A DNA stretch of 10,142 nucleotides from a virus. Lineage: Duplodnaviria; Heunggongvirae; Uroviricota; Caudoviricetes. The position numbers and the translations under genes are program-made. Where the stretch lies: the IMG/VR virus record IMGVR_UViG_2671180673_000014, one strand, 5' to 3'. Positions 1-10,142 of this stretch are shown piece by piece; position 1 is the stretch's first letter; each line of letters begins with the position of its first letter. A model generated the notes under the pieces. That model had not been told where the DNA came from and ran no database searches. It was given only the letters and a program-made list of their open reading frames with translations.

Positions 1-19
1 CTATTTGATAAATATTAAA

Positions 20-1315
20 TTAATTTTTCATTGCTTCGTTATGGGGCATGGTTGGGGCAAACTCGCTTAACTGTGTATTTAACAAAGCTACCTGTGCATT
101 ATTGTTTTCAGACATCCATTTTCCGTATACCTGAAATACCATTTGCGCATCTGCATGGCCCATCTGGTTTGCTATAAATGCCGGGTTAGCACCAGCTGTC
201 AGCGACCAGCAGGCATAAGTATGTCTCGACTGATATGATTTTCGATGGCGGAGTCCGGCACGTTTTATCGCTGCGTCCCACATCTGCCTTATTGAGTCAA
301 CGGTAAAATGGTCACCATAATTTTTTACTCTCGCTGACACTTCAGGTTGAAAAACAAAGGTGCATTTTTGTTTTTCTGTTCTGCCATACTCTCTGAGGTG
401 AACATCAATGATATGCTCTTTGCTCAGTCTCGTTAATGTCATCTGACTCCGGAGAGCGTCGATTGCTGGCTTAATAAGATGAATGACCCGATTGGTTCCC
501 GCCTGTGTTTTTGGTACCGTGAAACGGTCTTTTGCTAAATTTCTCCTGATCATCATTGTTCCATTTTTCAGATCTATGTCCTCCCATCCAAGTGCACACA
601 GCTCACCAGGGCGAACTCCAGTATAAACAGAAACACACCATAAATTTTTTGCTTGCTGATTTCTGCACGCATCGATAAGACGGATAAATTCTTCCCGCGA
701 AAGAGGATCCGGAATGGTTCTTGATTCCTTTAATGGCGAGATCCCCTTAAACGGATTATCTGCCAGGTAACCGTTATCAACACCAAACTGGAACACGGCG
801 TTAAGATTTGTCATGTAATTATTTACAGTTACAGCCGATCTCCCTGGTTGTGTAACAATATAGTTACTTTTGGGGATCTGGTATCCAGTCAGTAACTCTT
901 TACGAACCTCCAGTAATTTTTCTTTATTAATCGATGAGGCAAGATTTTTTTCACCGATTATGCTCAGGATATTTTTGATGACGGCACGGTATGTGTTGAG
1001 TGATGTTTTGGCGACTTCAGTTTCTTTCAGTGCCAGAAATTTTTCAGCCAGTTCTTTTATGGTTAAATCTTGTCGGGCCTCACCAAATTTTTCCAGATTG
1101 CGTGAGGAGGGAAACTGTTTTGCATAGTCGAAAACACCAGTTTTTATTGCGTAACAAACAGAGGAGCGTAGTTCACCTGCAACGCGCCTGTTTTTTGCTG
1201 TGTCAGGAACCCCCAGATTTTCCCTGACTCTTACGTCTTTATAAACAAACCAGATACGTAATTTCCCTCCATGGTTTTCCACGCCTGTCGGATATTTCAT
1301 TTCAACTTCTCTCAT
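20..1315 (-). CDS. Phage integrase, tyrosine recombinase of the lambda Int family (431 aa as drawn; alternative in-frame ATG at 1298-1300 gives 426 aa)
   Basis: Long minus-strand ORF at the element edge. The translation shows the catalytic-domain signature: conserved Arg in TGVRPGE, the SRHTYACW box (H-x-x-R-like), and a C-terminal Tyr in VYGKW. It sits directly downstream of a small Xis-like ORF, the canonical xis-int arrangement. Stop TAA at 20-22. Confidence 0.9.
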   Translation of the reverse strand: MREVEMKYPTGVENHGGKLRIWFVYKDVRVRENLGVPDTAKNRRVAGELRSSVCYAIKTGVFDYAKQFPSSRNLEKFGEARQDLTIKELAEKFLALKETEVAKTSLNTYRAVIKNILSIIGEKNLASSINKEKLLEVRKELLTGYQIPKSNYIVTQPGRSAVTVNNYMTNLNAVFQFGVDNGYLADNPFKGISPLKESRTIPDPLSREEFIRLIDACRNQQAKNLWCVSVYTGVRPGELCALGWEDIDLKNGTMMIRRNLAKDRFTVPKTQAGTNRVIHLIKPAIDALRSQMTLTRLSKEHIIDVHLREYGRTEKQKCTFVFQPEVSARVKNYGDHFTVDSIRQMWDAAIKRAGLRHRKSYQSRHTYACWSLTAGANPAFIANQMGHADAQMVFQVYGKWMSENNNAQVALLNTQLSEFAPTMPHNEAMKN

Positions 1316-1334
1316 TAGTTAGTGTGGCTTTTAG

Positions 1335-1586
1335 TCAAGTAAGATGACGTCTTGGTCTCGCTGATGCCTGGCGCTCAATCCAGCGATCAATTTCTTCCAG
1401 GTTGTAAAAGCATGGACTGTTATCCCATGGCATACCGTCATGAGCGACATGCTTATATTCCCTTCCTTCCATAAACGATTTTTCCCGGGCCTTTTTTAAC
1501 GTACCTTTTTTTATTCCTTTCAGCGCAATTAACTGCTCTTCGGATACCCATTTGCCGGGAGAGACAATCATGATTACTTCGCTCAT
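1335..1586 (-). CDS. Excisionase-like small protein (83 aa; alternative start at 1569-1571)
   Basis: Small ORF immediately upstream of and co-oriented with the integrase, separated by 19 bp, with a basic lysine-rich N-terminal half. The call is by position and size; no motif was verified. Confidence 0.5.
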   Translation of the reverse strand: MSEVIMIVSPGKWVSEEQLIALKGIKKGTLKKAREKSFMEGREYKHVAHDGMPWDNSPCFYNLEEIDRWIERQASARPRRHLT

Positions 1587-1658
1587 CGATTTCTTTATCT
1601 CTTACATCAGACGAGCGCCGGTTGCAGAATACCAGTCACAACCGGCGACAGTTGAACA

Positions 1659-4130
1659 TTAAGAATCAGCCTGACTCGGGATCAGTTTTTGCCAGATAAC
1701 TGAAACGTATTTTGCCTGGTAACGGGCGTCATCAAGTGCATTATGGCGCTCACCTTCGAATGGAATAGCCGTTCTGGCATCGAAGTCTATGGCTTTCCCC
1801 AGCTCAACGATTGTGCGTACATCGCGATCGTTGTAGTAACGCCACGGGCAGGGGATCCCCTGCCGTTCGTATGAACGGCGCAAAATCGTGTTGTCGAAGT
1901 TGGCTCCATTTCCCCAAACCTGAACAAAAAATTCACCGGAGTTTTCGTCGATAAATTCTCGCAATTGTAACAGTGCATCATCTAACGGGATTTCATCGGT
2001 CATAATGGCAGATTGCGCTTCGCGTGATTGCTTAAGCCACCATTTAATGGTGTCCCGATCAATGACTCCGCCAGCAGTTTCCAGATCGATAGTCTTACTA
2101 AATTCCGGTCCCATATCTCCGGTTTGCGGATCGAAAAATATTGCACCTATTGAGATGATCGGGGCATCAGGATTTTTTCCCATGGTTTCAAGGTCGATCA
2201 TTAGATGGTCACACGTCCTGCTGGTGGATGTGATTTCGTGATGACCGTTCACCTTAATTGGGTGATCTGCCGTCTCGCCAGTTTCATTATCGCTATTGTG
2301 ATGCTGATTGCCGCCAGTGTTCTCCTTGTGTGGATGTTCAGCGCCTTCCATTTCCTCCGGATCATCTTCCTGAACTTCAACCTGATACTCTTCATCGAAT
2401 GTTTCTTGGTATGTTGCGTCGCCCATCACCGCGCCACAATCAGGGCAGTTGCCGCCGCCGGTCTGACCGCAGGCGGTGCAGACTTTTTCCACTTCCTGTT
2501 GCGCTACTGGTTCAGGCTGTTTCGTTTCTGGCTCGTTTTGTAACGCATTTGGACTGTTTTGTTCCGCTTTTTGGTAGTTCCGTTCCGATTCATGCTGGTT
2601 CTGGTTCACAGAATCGCGGGTCTGGAGCCCCTTAACCCATTTCGGATCATTCGGGTCACTAATCCCTTCAACAAATTCACCACGTGATGCAGCAAGCAAC
2701 TTATCGGCGTCAGGCTGGCTGATATTGGCTGCCTGCATAATTTTGTTTACTTCGTCAGCGGTAACTTTTATCGGCTCTGGTTGTTCTGAATCTTCAGCGG
2801 TATCTACATTTTGCGGTAAGCCCGTGTATGTGCCATTTTTTCGGGCAAAATATTCTTCTTTTGTGATTTCAGTGGCGCCAGCAGCCAGTGCCTTATCCAG
2901 ACCAGAGAGTTTGTTTGCGCGACCGTATTTTTCTCCGTCCTTATCTGCGAAGAGGAAATAGAACGGCCCCTCACGCTCTACAGATGGTTCAGCTTCCGGC
3001 GCGGTTTCATTTTTTGGGATATCAGATACCTCAGTTTCCACTGCATCAGTTTGTGTTTCTGATGACTGGAGAACATCAACAGTGCCCAGGTCTGTTTCTT
3101 CATTCTCAAACACGCCCTTTGTCGTCAGGTATTCGCAGATATATTTGTTCAGTGCTACGGGATCTTTGTGAATGTCGATCGGACGCTCACGGACAAGGCC
3201 AAAAATAGTTTGGCGGTCGTAGCGAAGGGCATCAGGCTGTTTGCGCATTGATGCCGAGATACGCTTCCAGTCTTCGCGGTCGTTGTCGATAACTTCTTTT
3301 TTTGCCCAGCGATGGATGCTGCCGTCAATGTTTCCGGCATCCACATCACTAGGCCAGAGAGCGTAGGCCAGTTCGTCATCCAGTGTTTTCCATGTCTGCT
3401 TGTATTCGCGATGAATGGCAGCAATGACCGGGCTGATTTTTCCTGTTGAATTTTCAGTGTACTGTTGATTGGCTCTGGCGCGGGCGAGATCAACAACAGA
3501 CGTGTATTTTCCGGTTTCCTTGCGTTCACCTTCGCGACGTTTTTTCCAGATGCGCATCTCTGCCTGAATTTCGGGCCATTTAGCACCAGGAATACATTTA
3601 TGCTTAACCCACCCAATGGCGTGCAACTTAAGCTCCGGATACATGGCGTTAACTTCTGGCATTTTCATCAACGCTTCAACGATATGTCCGTCGAATGTTG
3701 CCATGTCTTCCTGCAACAATTCCTGTGCGCTAATAACCATATCAACGGTGATGTTTTCACATGTGTCGAACTTAACCATGACAGCGTTCTGTACTTCAGG
3801 GGCCAGCTTGTCAAAAGTGACGTTCATCGGATCGGATTCAGTCTCAACCGGGACAAAAGAAGCAGACTCCTCATCCCAGCGGTTTTCCTGCATATATTCA
3901 GCATCCCATGAATCGAGGGCAGGGCGGGGTATGCCAGGTTTATCCTCGCAGACAATAAATTTATAAGCGCAGTCCTGAGCAGCCGGATAATGTTCCAGGA
4001 ATTGCCAGTGAAATTTTGCTCGAGCACGGCGTTCGTCGCCAGCTTCAATGGCTGTGGCTACAGCCACAGCGCCTTCTTCCCTTGTTGCCAGTTCGTCAGG
4101 AATAGCGGCGCAAATAAAGACTTTACTCAT
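1659..4130 (-). CDS. Exodeoxyribonuclease VIII-like large protein with C-terminal DnaQ-type (DEDDh) 3'-5' exonuclease domain (823 aa from ATG at 4128-4130)
   Basis: The ORF as drawn starts on TTG at 4166; the in-frame ATG at 4128-4130 is preceded by AGGT about 8 nt upstream, giving MSKVFICAAIPDELATREEG. The C-terminal ~180 aa carry DEDDh motifs: MIDLETMG (codons at 2181-2204), WGNGANFD and HNALDDARYQ. A C-x2-C-x7-C-x2-C knuckle (VCTACGQTGGGNCPDCG, about 2427-2483) and a long acidic linker lie upstream. It occupies the lambda exo/bet position between ydfD and xis. Confidence 0.8.
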   Translation of the reverse strand: MSKVFICAAIPDELATREEGAVAVATAIEAGDERRARAKFHWQFLEHYPAAQDCAYKFIVCEDKPGIPRPALDSWDAEYMQENRWDEESASFVPVETESDPMNVTFDKLAPEVQNAVMVKFDTCENITVDMVISAQELLQEDMATFDGHIVEALMKMPEVNAMYPELKLHAIGWVKHKCIPGAKWPEIQAEMRIWKKRREGERKETGKYTSVVDLARARANQQYTENSTGKISPVIAAIHREYKQTWKTLDDELAYALWPSDVDAGNIDGSIHRWAKKEVIDNDREDWKRISASMRKQPDALRYDRQTIFGLVRERPIDIHKDPVALNKYICEYLTTKGVFENEETDLGTVDVLQSSETQTDAVETEVSDIPKNETAPEAEPSVEREGPFYFLFADKDGEKYGRANKLSGLDKALAAGATEITKEEYFARKNGTYTGLPQNVDTAEDSEQPEPIKVTADEVNKIMQAANISQPDADKLLAASRGEFVEGISDPNDPKWVKGLQTRDSVNQNQHESERNYQKAEQNSPNALQNEPETKQPEPVAQQEVEKVCTACGQTGGGNCPDCGAVMGDATYQETFDEEYQVEVQEDDPEEMEGAEHPHKENTGGNQHHNSDNETGETADHPIKVNGHHEITSTSRTCDHLMIDLETMGKNPDAPIISIGAIFFDPQTGDMGPEFSKTIDLETAGGVIDRDTIKWWLKQSREAQSAIMTDEIPLDDALLQLREFIDENSGEFFVQVWGNGANFDNTILRRSYERQGIPCPWRYYNDRDVRTIVELGKAIDFDARTAIPFEGERHNALDDARYQAKYVSVIWQKLIPSQADS

Positions 4131-4222
4131 TTGTTTTAACCTCATGACAGATTTAAGGATGAACAAATCCCTGCCATTGCTGGCATATAAGAATGAAACC
4201 GGATATTTATTACGGAACTGTT

Positions 4223-4414
4223 TTAAAGACCTGCCGGGATTTCGATATTATCCTGGTGAATAACTTTATCGACCGGGTAACAGTTACCGGGAATTTTCTG
4301 TTCGGTTGCTGCAGTCATACACTCCTGCATTGTCCTGTGAACACTGACTGCAATATCAACTGGCTCTCCGGAAACAAGAAAAACTGTCAGAACAAGCACA
4401 AATGCTGAATTCAT
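4223..4414 (-). CDS. ydfD: YdfD-like small lysis protein (63 aa) with N-terminal hydrophobic segment
   Basis: Translation MNSAFVLVLTVFLVSGEPVDIAVSVHRTMQECMTAATEQKIPGNCYPVDKVIHQDNIEIPAGL matches my recollection of K-12 YdfD. Its ATG (4412-4414) overlaps the dicB TGA stop (4411-4413) as ATGA. Confidence 0.8.
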   Translation of the reverse strand: MNSAFVLVLTVFLVSGEPVDIAVSVHRTMQECMTAATEQKIPGNCYPVDKVIHQDNIEIPAGL

Positions 4415-4599
4415 TGTGCACATCCTTTTGGCATCAGACGTAAACGAGCCAGCATTGAAACAATGCATATTTTATTTAATAGCTCCCGTTCGTGTTTTCT
4501 CTTGTTAATGGCATCTTCAGTAAATACTGGGTTACTGATAGTGACACCAATTTCAAAACAACCTTCAGACGTATTAACGTTTGGTAATAACGTTTNCAT
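4411..4599 (-). CDS. dicB: Cell division inhibitor DicB (62 aa); codon 2 contains an ambiguous base (n at 4596)
   Basis: Translation M-X-TLLPNVNTSEGCFEIGVTISNPVFTEDAINKRKHERELLNKICIVSMLARLRLMPKGCAQ. ATG at 4597-4599 with GAGGA 9 nt upstream on the minus strand. The longer 97-aa ORF in the track is an upstream in-frame extension without a credible start. Confidence 0.85.
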   Translation of the reverse strand: MXTLLPNVNTSEGCFEIGVTISNPVFTEDAINKRKHERELLNKICIVSMLARLRLMPKGCAQ

Positions 4600-4773
4600 T
4601 ATCGCGTCCTCAACAATGAATTTTGTGATGCNGTGCCTGGTGCNTCCAGGTGACGTTAACCAGTTAACAATTAACGCCGGATACAGAGAATCCACCCATA
4701 ACACTGTTTTTGGTTTTAACTGTTCCGCGTGCGCTCAGCCGCATTCACCNCATCACAAAATTCACTTTAAAAA

Positions 4774-4826
4774 GGGCGGCAGAGCAGTCACGGAGTAAAA
4801 CTGATACCGCCAAACGTCACCAGAAA
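4774..4826 (-). ncRNA. dicF: DicF small regulatory RNA (53 nt), antisense regulator of ftsZ and other mRNAs
   Basis: The reverse complement of 4774-4826 is TTTCTGGTGACGTTTGGCGGTATCAGTTTTACTCCGTGACTGCTCTGCCGCCC, followed by TTTTTAAAG. This matches the K-12 DicF sequence as I recall it, including the GGCGG...CCGCC 3' hairpin and U-tract. It lies between ydfC and dicB as in the K-12 dicB operon. Confidence 0.85.
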
Positions 4827-5166
4827 ATTGATAACAGAGGGCGTTGCAGCGGGGTTGTCACTTAAGCGTATGGTCAACCTGACAACCCGGTGTCCTCAAC
4901 GGGGAAGGAATAACCCCGCCATACTNACCGCCGCGCCATTTCGCGGNTTGCCACAACCGGAAGCGCACGGTCGACGAAAATTTAACGACAGGCTATCTAT
5001 GAACCAGCTACCTCGCCGTGCGCTTTCGCGTTATGGTCTGACTTTTCAGGGAAATATCCTTTCAGTAAACTGTCAGTTCCGGATGCGCACCCGTGTCCGG
5101 CGCACGCACTCCACCTCACCCGTGGAGAACTCCTTAATTACTAACCTTAGCTTTGTTGATTAGCTA

Positions 5167-5385
5167 CTAACGCGGGTATGTAATCATTCTGGCAATGCTT
5201 AATGCCGCTGCTTTTTCCAGATTGGTGATATCCTGCTCCAGAGCGGACAGATTTTCAGCCTGCTTAGCCCTGGCTTCATTAGCCCATTTCAGATCCTGCG
5301 CTGCATTAATTTTCTGGCGCATCCACTCATAAAGTTCATCATCGGTATAGTCTGGCGCGATGATGACGGGTTCTCGTTTCTGCAT
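5167..5385 (-). CDS. ydfC: YdfC-like protein (72 aa)
   Basis: ORF MQKREPVIIAPDYTDDELYEWMRQKINAAQDLKWANEARAKQAENLSALEQDITNLEKAAALSIARMITYPR. ATG at 5383-5385 is preceded by GAGGAA. Position and sequence match my recollection of K-12 YdfC. Confidence 0.8.
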   Translation of the reverse strand: MQKREPVIIAPDYTDDELYEWMRQKINAAQDLKWANEARAKQAENLSALEQDITNLEKAAALSIARMITYPR

Positions 5386-5414
5386 ACTGATTCCTCGCGG
5401 TGCTGTTTCGCTTA

Positions 5415-5543
5415 TCAGCCGTTAGATTTTGCCGAACTGGAAAGCGCCTGTTTAAACTCACTGAAGCTGAGAGCTTCTTCGCCTTCGGCAAGGCCTTCGA
5501 AGTATTCTTCGTAAGCCTTTTCCATGATTGTGTCGAAATCCAT
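5415..5543 (-). CDS. ydfB: YdfB-like small protein (42 aa); absent from the supplied ORF track because it is below the length cutoff
   Basis: Hand translation of the minus strand from ATG at 5541-5543 gives MDFDTIMEKAYEEYFEGLAEGEEALSFSEFKQALSSSAKSNG, ending at TGA 5415-5417. AGGTGA lies upstream. The start is 1 nt after the ydfA stop. Confidence 0.7.
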   Translation of the reverse strand: MDFDTIMEKAYEEYFEGLAEGEEALSFSEFKQALSSSAKSNG

Positions 5544-5544
5544 A

Positions 5545-5700
5545 TCACTCACCTGAGTTTCTTTCCAGCCAGCGACGGGCACCATTTTCGGTTTTAAACG
5601 TTTTGCTTTTGGTATACGTCATTGCGGTGAACGTGCCGTCCTGGTTTGGAAACACGCCGTACACCAGAGATTCGTTGTTGCCAAGATCGATAGTATCCAT
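5545..5700 (-). CDS. ydfA: YdfA-like small protein (51 aa)
   Basis: ATG at 5698-5700 preceded by GAGGT. Translation MDTIDLGNNESLVYGVFPNQDGTFTAMTYTKSKTFKTENGARRWLERNSGE. The longer track ORF (to 5778) is an upstream extension running into the promoter. Confidence 0.75.
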   Translation of the reverse strand: MDTIDLGNNESLVYGVFPNQDGTFTAMTYTKSKTFKTENGARRWLERNSGE

Positions 5701-5777
5701 GCTGACCTCATTTCCCCTTAACGCTGGGGTAGCGGAACTGTTTGCTGAGAACACCGTGCGGTGTGTTGATGCAAACA

Positions 5778-5806
5778 AGATTAGCCATGACTAACATATC
5801 GGTCAA
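5778..5806 (-). promoter_or_regulatory. Sigma70-type promoter of the leftward dicB operon
   Basis: On the minus strand: -35 TTGACC (plus 5801-5806), 17-bp spacer, -10 TAATCT (plus 5778-5783). It lies about 70 nt upstream of ydfA, and operator-like palindrome O3 overlaps the -10. Confidence 0.55.
5781..5794. promoter_or_regulatory. Operator-like palindrome O3 (TTAGC-CATG-ACTAA) within the dicB operon promoter
   Basis: 14-bp inverted repeat with the same architecture as O1 and O2 in the dicA-dicC intergenic region. It overlaps the -10 and spacer of the leftward promoter. Confidence 0.5.
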
Positions 5807-5866
5807 GTGATTTTGTATGCTATAGCTAACATGATTGATGTAGTAAAAGATAACTCATTGATGATG

Positions 5867-6274
5867 TTATCTTTTATTTGTCCGCTGACGGGCTTTTAGT
5901 AATTCTTCAAAGAGTTTATTGAAGTTTTTTACTCGAGCTCGCATTTCGGCGAGCTGGGTATCCTGTTCTGATTCTGGCAGTGCATTAAACAGCTCAAGGA
6001 GCTCTAGTTCTTTGGGGGATAAGGCAACTGGCTTCTCAACAGGTGGTGTTGGTTGCTTGTCTTCATCGCCAAATAGAATCCATGTTGGTGAGCATTGCAA
6101 TACTTTGCTGAGGGCAAAAAGGTTCTTCCCTGTAGGTTCACTATCACCCCGTTCCCATTGTGATACAGACACATGGGAGATTTTCAGGGCTTTAGCAAGA
6201 GACCTTTGGGTGTGTTTGAGGTTTTTCCGACGATACCTGATGCGTTCGCCGATAGTTAAATTTTTTGTTTCCAT
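5867..6274 (-). CDS. dicA: DicA repressor, XRE-family HTH, cI-like (135 aa)
   Basis: Translation METKNLTIGERIRYRRKNLKHTQRSLAKALKISHVSVSQWERGDSEPTGKNLFALSKVLQCSPTWILFGDEDKQPTPPVEKPVALSPKELELLELFNALPESEQDTQLAEMRARVKNFNKLFEELLKARQRTNKR, with the helix-turn-helix at HTQRSLAKALKISHVSVSQWE. It is divergent from a Cro-like gene. Confidence 0.9.
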   Translation of the reverse strand: METKNLTIGERIRYRRKNLKHTQRSLAKALKISHVSVSQWERGDSEPTGKNLFALSKVLQCSPTWILFGDEDKQPTPPVEKPVALSPKELELLELFNALPESEQDTQLAEMRARVKNFNKLFEELLKARQRTNKR

Positions 6275-6276
6275 AG

Positions 6277-6290
6277 TTAGCTAATGCTAA
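6277..6290. promoter_or_regulatory. Operator-like palindrome O1 (TTAGC-TAAT-GCTAA) next to the dicA start codon
   Basis: Perfect 5-bp inverted arms with a 4-bp spacer, 3 bp from the dicA ATG (6272-6274). Confidence 0.5.
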
Positions 6291-6296
6291 ATCGTA

Positions 6297-6325
6297 TTGA
6301 CTATGTTTTTGTTAACATCTATCTT
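6297..6325 (+). promoter_or_regulatory. Sigma70-type promoter of dicC (rightward, Cro-like transcription)
   Basis: -35 TTGACT (6297-6302), 17-bp spacer, -10 TATCTT (6320-6325); predicted start site about 6332, with dicC ATG at 6358. Confidence 0.5.
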
Positions 6326-6343
6326 GTTAGTTATGACTAACAA
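6324..6343. promoter_or_regulatory. Operator-like palindrome O2 (TTGTTAGT-TATG-ACTAACAA; core TTAGT-TATG-ACTAA at 6327-6340)
   Basis: Perfect 8-bp inverted arms with a 4-bp spacer, overlapping the -10 and start site of the dicC promoter. Confidence 0.55.
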
Positions 6344-6357
6344 TAAAGGTGTTTTAA

Positions 6358-6588
6358 ATGCTTAAAACTGACGCTCTTTTGTATTTCGGTTCAAAAACAA
6401 AACTTGCACAAGCAGCAGGTATTCGTTTGGCTTCGCTTTATAGCTGGAAAGGGGATTTAGTTCCCGAAGGTCGCGCGATGCGTCTACAGGAGGCATCTGG
6501 CGGGGAGCTTCAGTATGATCCCAAAGTTTATGATGAATATCGTAAGACGAAGCGGGCGGGGCGGTTGAACAATGAAAATCACTCCTGA
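6358..6588 (+). CDS. dicC: DicC, Cro-like regulator (76 aa)
   Basis: Translation MLKTDALLYFGSKTKLAQAAGIRLASLYSWKGDLVPEGRAMRLQEASGGELQYDPKVYDEYRKTKRAGRLNNENHS. AGGTG lies 7 nt upstream. Divergent from dicA. Confidence 0.85.
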   Translation: MLKTDALLYFGSKTKLAQAAGIRLASLYSWKGDLVPEGRAMRLQEASGGELQYDPKVYDEYRKTKRAGRLNNENHS

Positions 6589-7093
6589 ACAGGCTCGTGA
6601 GGCTCTGGATGCCTGGATATGTCGACCAGGAATGACACAGGAGCAGGCGACGATATTAATCACTGAAGCATTCTGGGCTTTGAAAGAGCGCCCGAACATC
6701 GATGTTCAGCGTGTCACATATGAAGGTGGCGCGATTGATCAGCGAGCGCTTGGCGTTAATCGAGTGAAGATATTTGAACGCTGGAAGGCTATCGACACCA
6801 GGGATAAGCGTGAAAAGTTCACGGCGCTAGTGCCTGCAATTATGGAGGCTATCCGGATTAATGATTTCAGGTTGTATCGTGAAATTACTGACGGAAAAAG
6901 CATCACGTGCATGATCGCCGGGTTAAACAAAGAATATGGCGATGTGGTGGAGTCCGGACTGCTTTTTGCTGATCCTGCCGTAGTGGATCGTGAAACTGAC
7001 GAACTTATAGAAAAAGCAATTGCTTTCAAACTTGCGTATCGACAGCAATACCAACAAAAAGCTGGATGGAATTATGAGCCTTCTTTTTGCTGA
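6572..7093 (+). CDS. YdaT-like protein, putative CII functional analogue (173 aa)
   Basis: Position immediately after the Cro-like gene, overlapping the dicC 3' end by 17 bp. The segment DKREKFTALVPAIMEAIRINDFRL resembles the corresponding motif of Rac YdaT as I recall it. The family assignment is tentative. Confidence 0.5.
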   Translation: MKITPEQAREALDAWICRPGMTQEQATILITEAFWALKERPNIDVQRVTYEGGAIDQRALGVNRVKIFERWKAIDTRDKREKFTALVPAIMEAIRINDFRLYREITDGKSITCMIAGLNKEYGDVVESGLLFADPAVVDRETDELIEKAIAFKLAYRQQYQQKAGWNYEPSFC

Positions 7094-8039
7094 ACGCCCA
7101 CTGGTTATAAACACGCAGCTGGCAATGAAAATTGGCTTAAACGAAGCCATTGTTTTGCAACAACTGCACTACTGGTTGAGAGATACCAACTCCGGCATGG
7201 AATGTGATGGTGTTCGCTGGATTTATAACACAACGGAACAATGGCTGGAACAGTTCCCATTCTGGTCAGAGTCAACGTTAAAGCGCGCGTTTGCAAGTCT
7301 GAAAACGCTGGGGCTTTTGCGTTGTGAAAAGCTCAATAAATCAAAGCGCGATATGACCAATTTCTACACGATCAACTATGGGAGCGAGCTTTTAGATGGT
7401 GGCAAATTGAGCGAATCCATCGGTTCAAAATGCGCCGCTCCATCAGGTCAAAATGACACGATGGAAGAGGTCAAAATGAAACGCTCCATTGGTTCAAAAC
7501 GACCCAATGTCATCGGGTCAAAATGGCCTGATGATCTTACAGAGAATACAACAGAGATTACTACAGAGAATAAAAACACTTTTCGTCCGGAAGCTTCGCA
7601 ACCGGACCCGCAGACGACTGAACAGGATTTTTTAACCCGGAACTCCGACGCGGTTGTGTTTAGTGCGAAAAAACGCCAGTGGGGTAGCAGGGAGGATTTG
7701 GCGTGTGCGCAGTGGATCTGGGGGCGGATCGTGGGTCTCTACGAACAGGCAGCCAGTGATGATGGCGAGATCATGCGACCAAAAGAGCCTAACTGGACTG
7801 CCTGGGCCAATGACGTGCGCACAATGCGGATGCTGGATGGCAGAAGCCACAGACAAATTTGCGAAATGTTTGGTCGGGTTCAGCGAGATCCATTCTGGGT
7901 AAAAAACATCATGAGCCCGTCAAAGCTCCGCGAAAAATGGGACGAACTGGTCATCCGCCTGGGACGTTCACCTGTACAGCGTTGTGTTAATCATATTTCT
8001 GAACCGGATACAGAAATTCCGCCTGGTTTCAGAGGATAA
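7074..8039 (+). CDS. Phage replication initiator (O-like) with N-terminal winged-helix region, iteron-encoding linker and DnaT-like C-terminal domain (321 aa from ATG at 7074; the track ORF starts on TTG at 7020)
   Basis: The C-terminus SEPDTEIPPGFRG closely parallels the C-terminal tail of E. coli primosomal protein DnaT as I recall it (SEPDSQIPPGFRG). The N-terminal region is helix-rich (LAMKIGLNEAIVLQQLHYWL). Five direct repeats lie inside the gene. Confidence 0.75.
   Translation: MSLLFAERPLVINTQLAMKIGLNEAIVLQQLHYWLRDTNSGMECDGVRWIYNTTEQWLEQFPFWSESTLKRAFASLKTLGLLRCEKLNKSKRDMTNFYTINYGSELLDGGKLSESIGSKCAAPSGQNDTMEEVKMKRSIGSKRPNVIGSKWPDDLTENTTEITTENKNTFRPEASQPDPQTTEQDFLTRNSDAVVFSAKKRQWGSREDLACAQWIWGRIVGLYEQAASDDGEIMRPKEPNWTAWANDVRTMRMLDGRSHRQICEMFGRVQRDPFWVKNIMSPSKLREKWDELVIRLGRSPVQRCVNHISEPDTEIPPGFRG
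7416..7525 (+). repeat. Five direct repeats (iterons) at 23-24-bp periodicity, putative replication origin inside the initiator gene
   Basis: R1 7416-7432 tccatcggttcaaaatg; R2 7439-7455 tccatcaggtcaaaatg; R3 7462-7478 tggaagaggtcaaaatg; R4 7485-7501 tccattggttcaaaacg; R5 7509-7525 gtcatcgggtcaaaatg. Analogous to lambda ori iterons within gene O. Confidence 0.6.
7538..7578 (+). repeat. Three tandem ~12-bp A-rich repeats (ACAGAGA-A/T-TA) flanking the iterons
   Basis: tacagagaataca / acagagattact / acagagaataaaaaca, directly downstream of the iterons, where an A+T-rich unwinding region would be expected. They encode the repetitive linker TENTTEITTENKN. Confidence 0.4.
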
Positions 8040-8079
8040 GTGTTGATTTCAGGTCATGAGGTAATTTTAAGGGGGACTT

Positions 8080-8502
8080 GTGGCAAAAGTTTTTACACAA
8101 GAAGAGCGGGAAAAAATTAAATGGCAGGTGGTGGAACTCGTGCGCCAGAGCGGCCGTGAGACGTTACGGCAACTGGAAGCTAAAACAGGTGCGACTAGAT
8201 ATCTGATGAGCGTTCTTGCCAGAGAGCTGGTAGCCAGTGGCGATGTATACAACTCCGGCTACGGGTTATTCCCCTCTGAACAGGCGCGTAAGGACTGGCA
8301 AAACGCCCGCAAAAAACTCTCGAGGGCAAAGGTGAAGAAACCTGCTGTGGTTGATCCGGACCTTATCTGGTCATCACCTGACGGAGAAATACGTCGCTAC
8401 GACAGTCGCCTAAACATAATCTGTCGCGAGTGCCGGAAGAGCGAAGTTATGCAGCGCATACTGGCTTTCTATCAGGGTAATTTTCAGGACGTGGCGCAGT
8501 GA
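8080..8502 (+). CDS. Hypothetical protein (140 aa, GTG start) with a possible helix-turn-helix segment
   Basis: GTG at 8080 is preceded by AAGGGGG. The segment RETLRQLEAKTGATRYLMSVLARELV looks HTH-like. Its TGA stop (8500-8502) overlaps the GTG start of the next gene (8499-8501). Confidence 0.55.
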   Translation: MAKVFTQEEREKIKWQVVELVRQSGRETLRQLEAKTGATRYLMSVLARELVASGDVYNSGYGLFPSEQARKDWQNARKKLSRAKVKKPAVVDPDLIWSSPDGEIRRYDSRLNIICRECRKSEVMQRILAFYQGNFQDVAQ

Positions 8503-8945
8503 GTGCACCGGCAACCATTCTTGATATGTGCTGTGGCAGCCGCATGTTCTGGTTCGATAAGTCTGACGAACGGGCGATATTCAGCGATATCAGAAAAGAA
8601 GGATACACATTACGCAATGGGAGACGCTTGATTATCAGCCCTGACATTATCGCAGATTTTCGTGCATTATCATTTGCAGACGCATCTTTTTCGATGGTTG
8701 TATTAGACCCTCCGCATCTTGAGAGTGTTGGTGATAACGCCTGGATGGGAAAGAAATATGGACGGCTGAATAAAGATGCCTGGCGTGATGATTCGCGACA
8801 GAGATTTAAAGAAGCCTTTCGGGTGTTGAGGCCGCACGGCGTTCTGATTTTTTAATGGAATGAAACGCAAATACCGGTAAGCCAGATTCTGGCACTGACA
8901 GACAGAAAACCTGTTATCTGTCAACGAACAGGGAAAAAACGATAA
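8499..8945 (+). pseudogene. Small SAM-dependent (DNA) methyltransferase interrupted by an in-frame TAA at 8853-8855; the frame continues for 29 codons to TAA at 8943-8945
   Basis: The translation carries motif I-like ILDMCCGSR and motif IV-like VVLDPPHL. After the ochre codon the same frame reads WNETQIPVSQILALTDRKPVICQRTGKKR. TTT-TAA-TGG is one substitution from TTT-AAA-TGG. Confidence 0.5.
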
Positions 8946-9117
8946 AACCCACTGGATTATTTTTATGAAAGAGGCATCCAGTGAGTAGATTCGTAAGGCT
9001 ACAGATACGTATATCTGAATAATTAAATTCAGTTCTGTAAATAAAATTTAATCCTTAACCGGATGGATTTCCGCACCCTCAGAACATCAGGAGGCCGCCC
9101 GAAAGGGCGGTAGTGAA

Positions 9118-9228
9118 ATGCGAAAGTTCAAAATTATTATTGAAACGGGAATAGCTGGTGGAGATTTTGAGGATGTATTCGAAGTGGACGATGACGCAAC
9201 ACCTGAGGAAATTCATGACGGAGCATAA
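9118..9228 (+). other. Short acidic ORF (36 aa, MRKFKIIIETGIAGGDFEDVFEVDDDATPEEIHDGA) behind an SD-hairpin-ATG arrangement
   Basis: AGGAGG at 9089-9094 is followed by the perfect hairpin CCGCCC-GAAA-GGGCGG (9095-9110), then ATG at 9118. Looping out the hairpin would bring the SD to about 7 nt from the start. The ORF is too short for a confident coding call. Confidence 0.25.
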
Positions 9229-9277
9229 GAAATTTTCTTTAACTACTGCAATTACTCATACCACGAAATAAAAGACG

Positions 9278-9469
9278 ATGAGGAAGAACAAAGTGGCTGA
9301 TTTTTGTTCAGCTAAATATAACATCAGTTTTGAAGAGCGGGATGAACTATTAATGGACTATGGTGAGTTACGCGGTGGAAGTGCTGCTGATGTCGAATCC
9401 TAGCGTGATGACTATGAAGCGGGAAAAACTCCGGTCGAAGCATATTGTGATGAGTGGGGCGATGAATGA
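9278..9469 (+). pseudogene. Small acidic ORF interrupted by an in-frame amber codon (TAG at 9401-9403); 63 codons if read through
   Basis: MRKNKVADFCSAKYNISFEERDELLMDYGELRGGSAADVES-(TAG)-RDDYEAGKTPVEAYCDEWGDE. The terminal TGA (9467-9469) overlaps the ATG of the next ORF (9466-9468) as ATGA, typical phage gene packing. Confidence 0.3.
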
Positions 9470-9753
9470 GCGAGATTAATTATCAGGAAGGGCATGAAAC
9501 GGCGGGGCAAGCAAAACCAGTGGCATGGCGATATCGCTACGTGAAAAAAGGCGTTACGGACTTTCAGGGGAAGTAGTGGTCTGGTGACTGGAAATATGTA
9601 CCGAAAAAAGAGGATTGTAACGACAGGCCGAACTATCAAATTCAGGCCTTATTCACTGCCTCACCAGTCCCAGTTACATCAGAAGAACTGGTTAAAGCTG
9701 TGCACTTTTATGAACAACTAAAACGCGAAAATCCACCAACATCCGGCAACTAG
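9466..9753 (+). pseudogene. Phage-like ORF interrupted by an in-frame amber codon (TAG at 9574-9576); 95 codons if read through
   Basis: MSEINYQEGHETAGQAKPVAWRYRYVKKGVTDFQGK-(TAG)-WSGDWKYVPKKEDCNDRPNYQIQALFTASPVPVTSEELVKAVHFYEQLKRENPPTSGN. The post-amber portion stays open for 58 codons in the same frame. Confidence 0.35.
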
Positions 9754-9892
9754 ATTAATGGATTAACTATGTCGGTTAAACGACCAGCCAACTGAAAAAG
9801 CGGAAACCTGATTACAGGTTGCCAGATAAGGCAATGAGCTACCTGGCGCGGAACGGACTGATAAGTATGGGGAATGTTTTACGATGAACCTT

Positions 9893-10142
9893 TAGACTGG
9901 ATTTGCCCCTATATTTCCAGACATCTGTTATCACTTAACCCATTACAAGCCCGCTGCCGCAGATATTCCCGTGGCGAGCGATAACCCAGCGCACTATGCG
10001 GATGCCATTCGTTATAATGCTCGAACGCCTCTGCAAGGTTCTTTGCTGCCGTTAACCCGTCTGGTTTGGGCATGATACTGATGTAGTCACGCTTTATCGT
10101 TTTCACGAAGCTCTCTGCTATTCCGTTACTCTCCGGACTCCG
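9893..10142 (-). mobile_element. Right end of an IS2 (IS3-family) insertion sequence, continuing beyond the window
   Basis: The terminal sequence tagactggatttgcccctatatttccagacatctgttatcacttaaccc matches the IS2 right inverted repeat as I recall it; the exact boundary is uncertain between 9893 and 9898. The adjacent minus-strand frame encodes the InsD C-terminus. Confidence 0.8.
9909..10142 (-). CDS. insD: IS2 transposase OrfB (InsD), C-terminal part only; the N-terminus lies outside the window
   Basis: The minus-strand frame, open to the window edge, reads [77 protein letters not shown]. This is the end of the IS3-family integrase-core (rve) domain, with the HSALGY box. Stop TAG at 9909-9911. 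Confidence 0.8.

Follow-up and report, generated by a model that had tools for sequence, protein, structure and literature searches.

A 53-nt sequence identical to the K-12 sRNA gene dicF between ydfC and dicB of an Escherichia coli prophage segment

Introduction

DicF is a textbook prophage sRNA, which blocks the synthesis of FtsZ and retunes metabolism. Its 3' region pairs with the ribosome-binding site of ftsZ and its 5' end with xylR and pykA, as established by compensatory mutations (PMC5069750). RNase E generates the 5' end of DicF (PMC10448788, PMC5069750), and the 3' end of the 53-nt form results from Rho-independent termination (PMC5069750, PMC9438474). Two longer forms depend on RNase III. 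A 72-nt form is produced by RNase III processing of the full-length read-through transcript (PMC5069750, PMC9438474), and a 190-nt precursor owes its 5' end to an upstream RNase III cut, no internal promoter having been found (PMC10448788). The downstream site is reportedly dispensable, since dicF on a plasmid retains its function when this site is missing (PMC6582626). The promoter of the operon, dicBp, is repressed by DicA and can be turned on by the antirepressor Rem, by spontaneous switching, by urea and by heat (PMC10448788). DicF resembles CpxQ, SroC and SdhX, sRNAs derived from mRNA 3' regions, in having a terminator-set 3' end and a 5' end made by RNase E from a coding transcript (PMC9438474), but unlike them it is prophage-borne, lies inside an operon and has RNase III acting on both of its sides as well (PMC9438474, PMC10448788).

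Here we describe a DicF sequence in a stretch of 10,142 nucleotides, referred to below as the window. An earlier note, made by reading the window without database searches, had claimed an exact DicF with an intact downstream processing region, and these claims were followed up by alignment, covariance-model searches and RNA folding.

Identification of dicF

The sequence under study and the tract following it are listed below.

4774..4826, minus strand: dicF, DicF sRNA (Rfam RF00039, 53/53 identity to b1574, fold matching the family consensus)
4769..4773, minus strand: U-tract UUUUU of the intrinsic terminator (read directly, same as in K-12; 3' end of the short form)

Read from 4826 to 4774 on the minus strand, the 53 nt are UUUCUGGUGACGUUUGGCGGUAUCAGUUUUACUCCGUGACUGCUCUGCCGCCC, and UUUUUAAAGUG comes directly after 4774. 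In a four-way alignment all 53 bases were shared with dicF (b1574) of E. coli K-12 MG1655, where it is an annotated ncRNA (L003, 3883-3935). The exact DicF on the minus strand between ydfC and dicB announced by the earlier note was thus found at the coordinates given there. The note had proposed an Rfam search and an alignment to K-12 as checks. In the first, the DicF model RF00039 matched 4825..4774 on the minus strand over model positions 1-52 of 52 with 76.7 bits (E = 5.7e-16), well above its gathering score of 48, and DicF was the sole Rfam family reaching threshold when the whole window was compared with all families. In the second, there were 0 substitutions in the 3' region that pairs with ftsZ; the identity to K-12 also includes the 5' part that pairs with xylR and pykA (regions as in PMC5069750).

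In the predicted fold of DicF (-15.9 kcal/mol), about 15 nt at the 5' end are single-stranded, and the terminator stem-loop comes next, formed by 4811..4805 with 4781..4775 and by 4803..4799 with 4789..4785. Both the minimum-free-energy fold and the centroid fold reproduce the Rfam consensus structure. A scan with consensus promoter and terminator patterns missed both dicBp and, on the minus strand, the DicF terminator; the latter escapes a simple pattern because its stem has an internal bulge and only five U follow.

The identity extends beyond the gene. Over 621 nt from the end of ydfC into dicB, 614 positions are identical to K-12, and the differences are C for T at 5018, the lone true substitution in the ydfC-dicB stretch, and six N. 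The downstream string tttttaaagtgaattttgtgatgNggtgaatgc, which the note quoted as agreeing with K-12, is indeed identical apart from an N at 4750, where K-12 has T. Taken together, there is very little doubt that 4826..4774 on the minus strand is a genuine and intact dicF gene. It is an already known, ordinary element at its canonical locus and represents the commonest allele, shared by 73 of 132 collected copies.

Ambiguous positions around dicF

The only N of the window are at 4596, 4632, 4644, 4750, 4926 and 4947. They are clustered within 350 bp around dicF, and none of the six lies inside it. It is a serious possibility, though one that we do not quite favor, that the local sequence is an assembly consensus of at least two slightly different dicF-dicB copies, from paralogous prophages or mixed strains, and does not represent exactly one physical locus. 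This would account for the confinement of all six N of a 10-kb window to 4596..4947. Moreover, among about 100 copies there are six columns in 4590..4950 with a minor allele of at least 30%, and the window has N at four of them (hypergeometric P = 3e-7). Multiple copies are common, as the 621-nt region was found in 4610 E. coli genomes at a median of 2 and a maximum of 9 places. On the other hand, the columns of 4644 and 4926 hardly vary among the copies, so that the N there are left unexplained, single genomes match the window outside the N at 99.9% over its full length, and deliberate masking of single bases may be the source of the N. Since DicF itself contains no N, the identification of the gene is the same if the sequence is such a consensus. 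The N may well flag a second, slightly different dicF-dicB copy, which matters for counting the copies of division inhibitors in the source strain.

Prophage and operon context

The DNA is that of E. coli, and the entire window aligns to strain 582 with 99.9% identity. In this strain the minus strand of the window carries dicA, ydfA, ydfB, ydfC, an unannotated dicF, dicB, ydfD and the genes for an exonuclease, an excisionase and an integrase, and then the chromosomal genes rspB and rspA. The opposite side has dicC, a YdaT-family gene, a gene for a hypothetical protein of 321 aa (replication protein O in the annotation of related records), DUF977, a methyltransferase gene, two pseudogenes and IS2. 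The order dicBp-ydfA-ydfB-ydfC-dicF-dicB-ydfD-exonuclease-xis-int matches that of annotated genomes, and dicF is located between ydfC (5385..5167) and dicB (4599..4411). The neighboring features are as follows.

6358..6588, plus strand: dicC, Cro-like regulator, divergent from dicA (same as K-12; P22_Cro, 44 bits)
5867..6274, minus strand: dicA, repressor of 135 aa (same as K-12; HTH_3, Phage_CI_repr)
5778..5806, minus strand: candidate dicBp, -35 TTGACC at 5806..5801, 17-nt spacer, -10 TAATCT at 5783..5778 (read by eye)
5700..5545, minus strand: ydfA (protein same as K-12)
5543..5415, minus strand: ydfB (protein same as K-12)
5385..5167, minus strand: ydfC (protein same as K-12)
4611..4607, minus strand: dicB Shine-Dalgarno GAGGA (read from the sequence)
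4411..4599, minus strand: dicB, division inhibitor of 62 aa (Pfam PF05358, 135.4 bits)
4223..4414, minus strand: ydfD, 63 aa, annotated lysis protein (same as K-12; Pfam DUF1482, 91 bits)

The DicA, DicC, YdfA, YdfB, YdfC and YdfD proteins are identical to those of K-12. The earlier note had described two division inhibitors, DicF and DicB, and the lysis protein YdfD. All three are encoded, but DicB is not fully that of K-12: it has His36 in place of Gln36 (Q36H), and its codon 2 reads NAA, that is, AAA for Lys or GAA for Glu, each of which is common among the copies. His36 is also annotated in strain 582 and in a record labelled DH5alpha. From the identity with K-12 we infer that the operon can be expressed and is under the control of DicA.

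Positions 1..9898 share 99.9% identity with Escherichia phage PhiR42_1 (48.7 kb; PV340562.1; host E. coli ECOR13), whereas the final 244 nt, 9899..10142, are the end of IS2 (IS3-family). Since the similarity to PhiR42_1 and to many prophages ends at 9898 and IS2 lies beyond, the prophage is interrupted at 9898/9899, in which it differs from PhiR42_1. Around dicF, 451 nt match PhiR42_1 at 100% identity. Related lambdoid phages are PPompW, Tritos, HannyBb and Stx2-converting phages.

The element is a Qin-type lambdoid prophage arm that is less decayed than the Qin prophage of K-12. Both have the order dicA/dicC-ydfABC-dicF-dicB-ydfD, the same 53 nt of dicF and, in the genome nearest to the window, the rspB neighborhood. 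In contrast to K-12, where ydfE is a pseudogene truncated by IS2E and intQ is a pseudogene, the exonuclease gene is full length here and the integrase and excisionase genes are intact; ydaT-like, replication-O-like, DUF977 and methyltransferase genes are retained to the right of dicC. Pfam confirmed the tyrosine integrase, the excisionase and an 823-aa protein with a 3'-5' exonuclease domain. This protein is encoded at 1659..4166 on the minus strand, with 823 aa as annotated elsewhere or 835 aa from an upstream TTG, and its C-terminal domain is a Rv2179c-like 3'-5' exonuclease domain.

Processing and flanking RNA structures

The spacer between ydfC and dicB is highly structured: an N-free twin of it folded at -215.6 kcal/mol (z = -4.47), and none of 100 shuffled sequences folded as well. 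Three predicted structures flank or overlap DicF. Their pairing was counted in an alignment of 92 distinct copies.

4951..5036, minus strand: helix I, 23 bp, 5036..5011 with 4976..4951 (predicted in three folds; about 95% paired in 92 copies)
4815..4836, minus strand: RNase E hairpin, 8 bp, 4836..4829 with 4822..4815 (predicted in two folds; 99.7% paired in 92 copies)
4746..4766, minus strand: left arm of helix II, AGUGAAUUUUGUGAUGNGGUG (predicted in three folds; includes the N at 4750)
4615..4635, minus strand: right arm of helix II, CACNGCAUCACAAAAUUCAUU (predicted; just upstream of the dicB Shine-Dalgarno; includes the N at 4632)

The RNase E position 4827|4826 (UCAAU|UUUCUGG), which was derived from the annotated 5' end of DicF in K-12, would lie in the A/U-rich loop of the predicted 8-bp hairpin, where cleavage would create the 5' end of DicF. 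Further upstream, helix I is the probable RNase III substrate for the 190-nt precursor. An RNA of this size ending at the DicF terminator would begin at about 4959-4963, in the middle of the 3' arm of helix I, and it is on this size that the assignment to the helix rests. The C at 5018 turns a U.G pair of K-12 into C-G within helix I; the pair is CG in 91 of the 92 copies and UG in one.

Helix II is a long-range helix of 21 bp (4766..4746 with 4635..4615) that closes a multi-hairpin domain of 110 nt. It is 99.1% paired across the 92 copies, and the terminator hairpin 99.8%. The two polymorphic positions of helix II switch only between U.G and C-G and between G.U and G-C, two sequences having U-A. 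One pair shows a two-sided change (in 2 sequences). Because the copies are so similar, compensatory changes are rare; the helices are well conserved, and their support by covariation is weak. The 72-nt form would have its 3' end (53 + 19 nt, about 4755) halfway along the 5' arm of helix II, to which this RNase III product may be assigned. Both sizes known from the literature, 190 nt and 72 nt, thus map to the centers of predicted helices of at least 21 bp. If the published RNase III position 813/814 (PMC10448788) lies in helix I, transcription would start at about 5771-5776. With such a start, and on the assumptions entering this arithmetic, the lengths 813/814, 1146 and 1608 of the same study fit ends at about 4631, in the right arm of helix II, and at about 4169, past ydfD.

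The claim that the downstream processing region is intact needs qualification in two respects. An RNase III step leading to the 72-nt form is documented, but the 53-nt form is made by termination and RNase E, and functional DicF reportedly does without the downstream site. In addition, 4750 and 4632, both of them in helix II, are N, although the T and C alleles both keep the pair. As the ends of the 53-nt form come from termination and RNase E and the upstream RNase III cut gives the precursor, the processing region of DicF is mostly the upstream flank. This flank, with helix I, is just as intact.

Helix II can be extended in the model to 28 bp (4607..4635 with 4746..4773), in which the U-tract of DicF would pair, largely by G.U, with the dicB Shine-Dalgarno GAGGA. 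Such a pairing, if true, might couple RNase III cleavage to the translation of dicB.

A further pairing appeared when DicF was folded in a context of 458 nt. In the minimum-free-energy structure the G-rich segment 4937..4913 paired over 21 bp with the 3' half of DicF (4796..4774), replacing the terminator, and for a precursor ending at the U-tract this alternative had -102.6 kcal/mol versus -99.2 kcal/mol for the terminator fold. Such an antiterminator-like structure was rejected: the 92 copies contain no compensatory change and their variable positions break pairs, 41 of 500 shuffled sequences equalled the duplex energy, and the upstream complement is absent from a DicF-like locus of Salmonella. 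The pairing of 4937..4913 is probably non-functional.

The dicF-dicB spacer

The spacer following DicF, 4776..4567 on the minus strand, aligned to the full 206-position model of STnc100 (RF02076) with 34.4 bits. This is below the gathering score of 47, and the spacer was not accepted as a member of this family. It shares with STnc100 the closing long-range helix of the model and the hairpin CACCNGGAGGCACCNGGCAC. STnc100 was above threshold next to DicF in none of 14 other loci, and the canonical STnc100 copies of EHEC lie elsewhere in prophages (PMC5331693, PMC12370729). STnc100 has been related to the PasD prophage sRNAs (bioRxiv 10.64898/2026.05.13.724894). It is conceivable but unlikely that RNase III cleavage of helix II sets free the 110-nt domain (about 4745..4636), with its sub-threshold likeness to STnc100/PasD, as another stable RNA, and that the extended 28-bp helix also couples processing to dicB translation. 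If true, the dicBF transcript would yield two non-coding RNAs.

Targets and function

In 5389 of 5425 E. coli genomes the ftsZ leader is conserved at 99% identity or more, and the target of DicF is therefore present. In a crude RNAduplex prediction the duplex between DicF and this leader spans the Shine-Dalgarno sequence, but 105 of 1000 shuffled sequences paired equally well. Because the predicted energy is no better than that of shuffled sequences, the claim of ftsZ pairing rests on the published compensatory mutations.

Following K-12, with which the region is identical as described above, the operon would be held off by the CI-like repressor DicA, and derepression would give a polycistronic RNA starting upstream of ydfA, with DicF embedded in the long, highly structured ydfC-dicB spacer. 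The 3' end of DicF would be set mainly by its own stem-loop and U-tract acting as an intrinsic terminator, and its 5' end by RNase E cleavage at 4827|4826. RNase III would cut in the upstream 23-bp helix to give the 190-nt precursor and, on read-through RNA, in the downstream 21-bp helix to give the 72-nt form. The 3' part of Hfq-bound DicF would then pair with the ribosome-binding site of ftsZ and block its translation, and the 5' part would pair with xylR and pykA. For the source strain, we infer the cleavage positions and the regulation of these targets from the model and from K-12.

The prophage is interrupted by IS2, and transcription is not provable from the window alone, so one may ask whether the locus is a silent relic, in which the prophage decays and its dicF, though perfect in sequence, is never expressed and has no function in the host. 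We regard this as very improbable. Identity to K-12 covers the promoter region, the repressor, every upstream gene and the processing flanks on either side, and stationary-phase cells of K-12 accumulate DicF, while a subpopulation turns the promoter on spontaneously (PMC10448788). In addition, 3947 of 5426 complete E. coli genomes have kept the exact 53-nt sequence, with a maximum of 7 copies, which argues for its maintenance. That the hairpin is merely the transcription terminator of ydfABC and its likeness to the sRNA incidental is practically out of the question: although the 3' two-thirds of DicF are an intrinsic terminator, and a Salmonella locus (L006) conserves only this part and differs in the 5' part, the single-stranded 5' seed is identical to K-12 and almost invariant in 130 copies, and compensatory mutations show direct pairing with ftsZ, xylR and pykA (PMC5069750) for the K-12 sequence, to which the present one is identical. 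We therefore retain the reading of the locus as an intact dicF gene.

Distribution and annotation

A copy at 99% identity or more was carried by 3761 records. A degenerate pattern of the DicF core retrieved at least 120 viral contigs and also matched genomes labelled E. coli, E. ruysiae, Shigella flexneri and Salmonella enterica. The remark of the earlier note that ORF and gene finders overlook DicF was borne out, as no feature is annotated at this place among the listed 53-nt matches and in the two genomes inspected. The exceptions among the inspected records are MG1655 and phage Tritos, the latter with the annotation 'DicF antisense sRNA, inhibits ftsZ'; most of the listed phage and RefSeq records leave it unannotated. 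With the gene mostly lacking an annotation, direct reading or a covariance-model scan is needed to detect it. Beyond correct annotation the importance of the present copy is small, since it is identical to the DicF already studied.

Three contigs with DicF (L008, L009 and L010) bear the labels of metagenome-assembled genomes, namely of Veillonella parvula, of Collinsella sp. and of a 'Proteobacteria bacterium' from soil, and are most likely mis-binned contigs of enterobacterial prophages. Two viral contigs carry isrK and C4 antisense RNA genes downstream of DicF and on the same strand, at a distance of about 220 nt in one (L057, 1796..2260) and about 1.1 kb in the other (L103, 4337..5650), so that the DicF module also adjoins a different immunity/antirepressor cassette.
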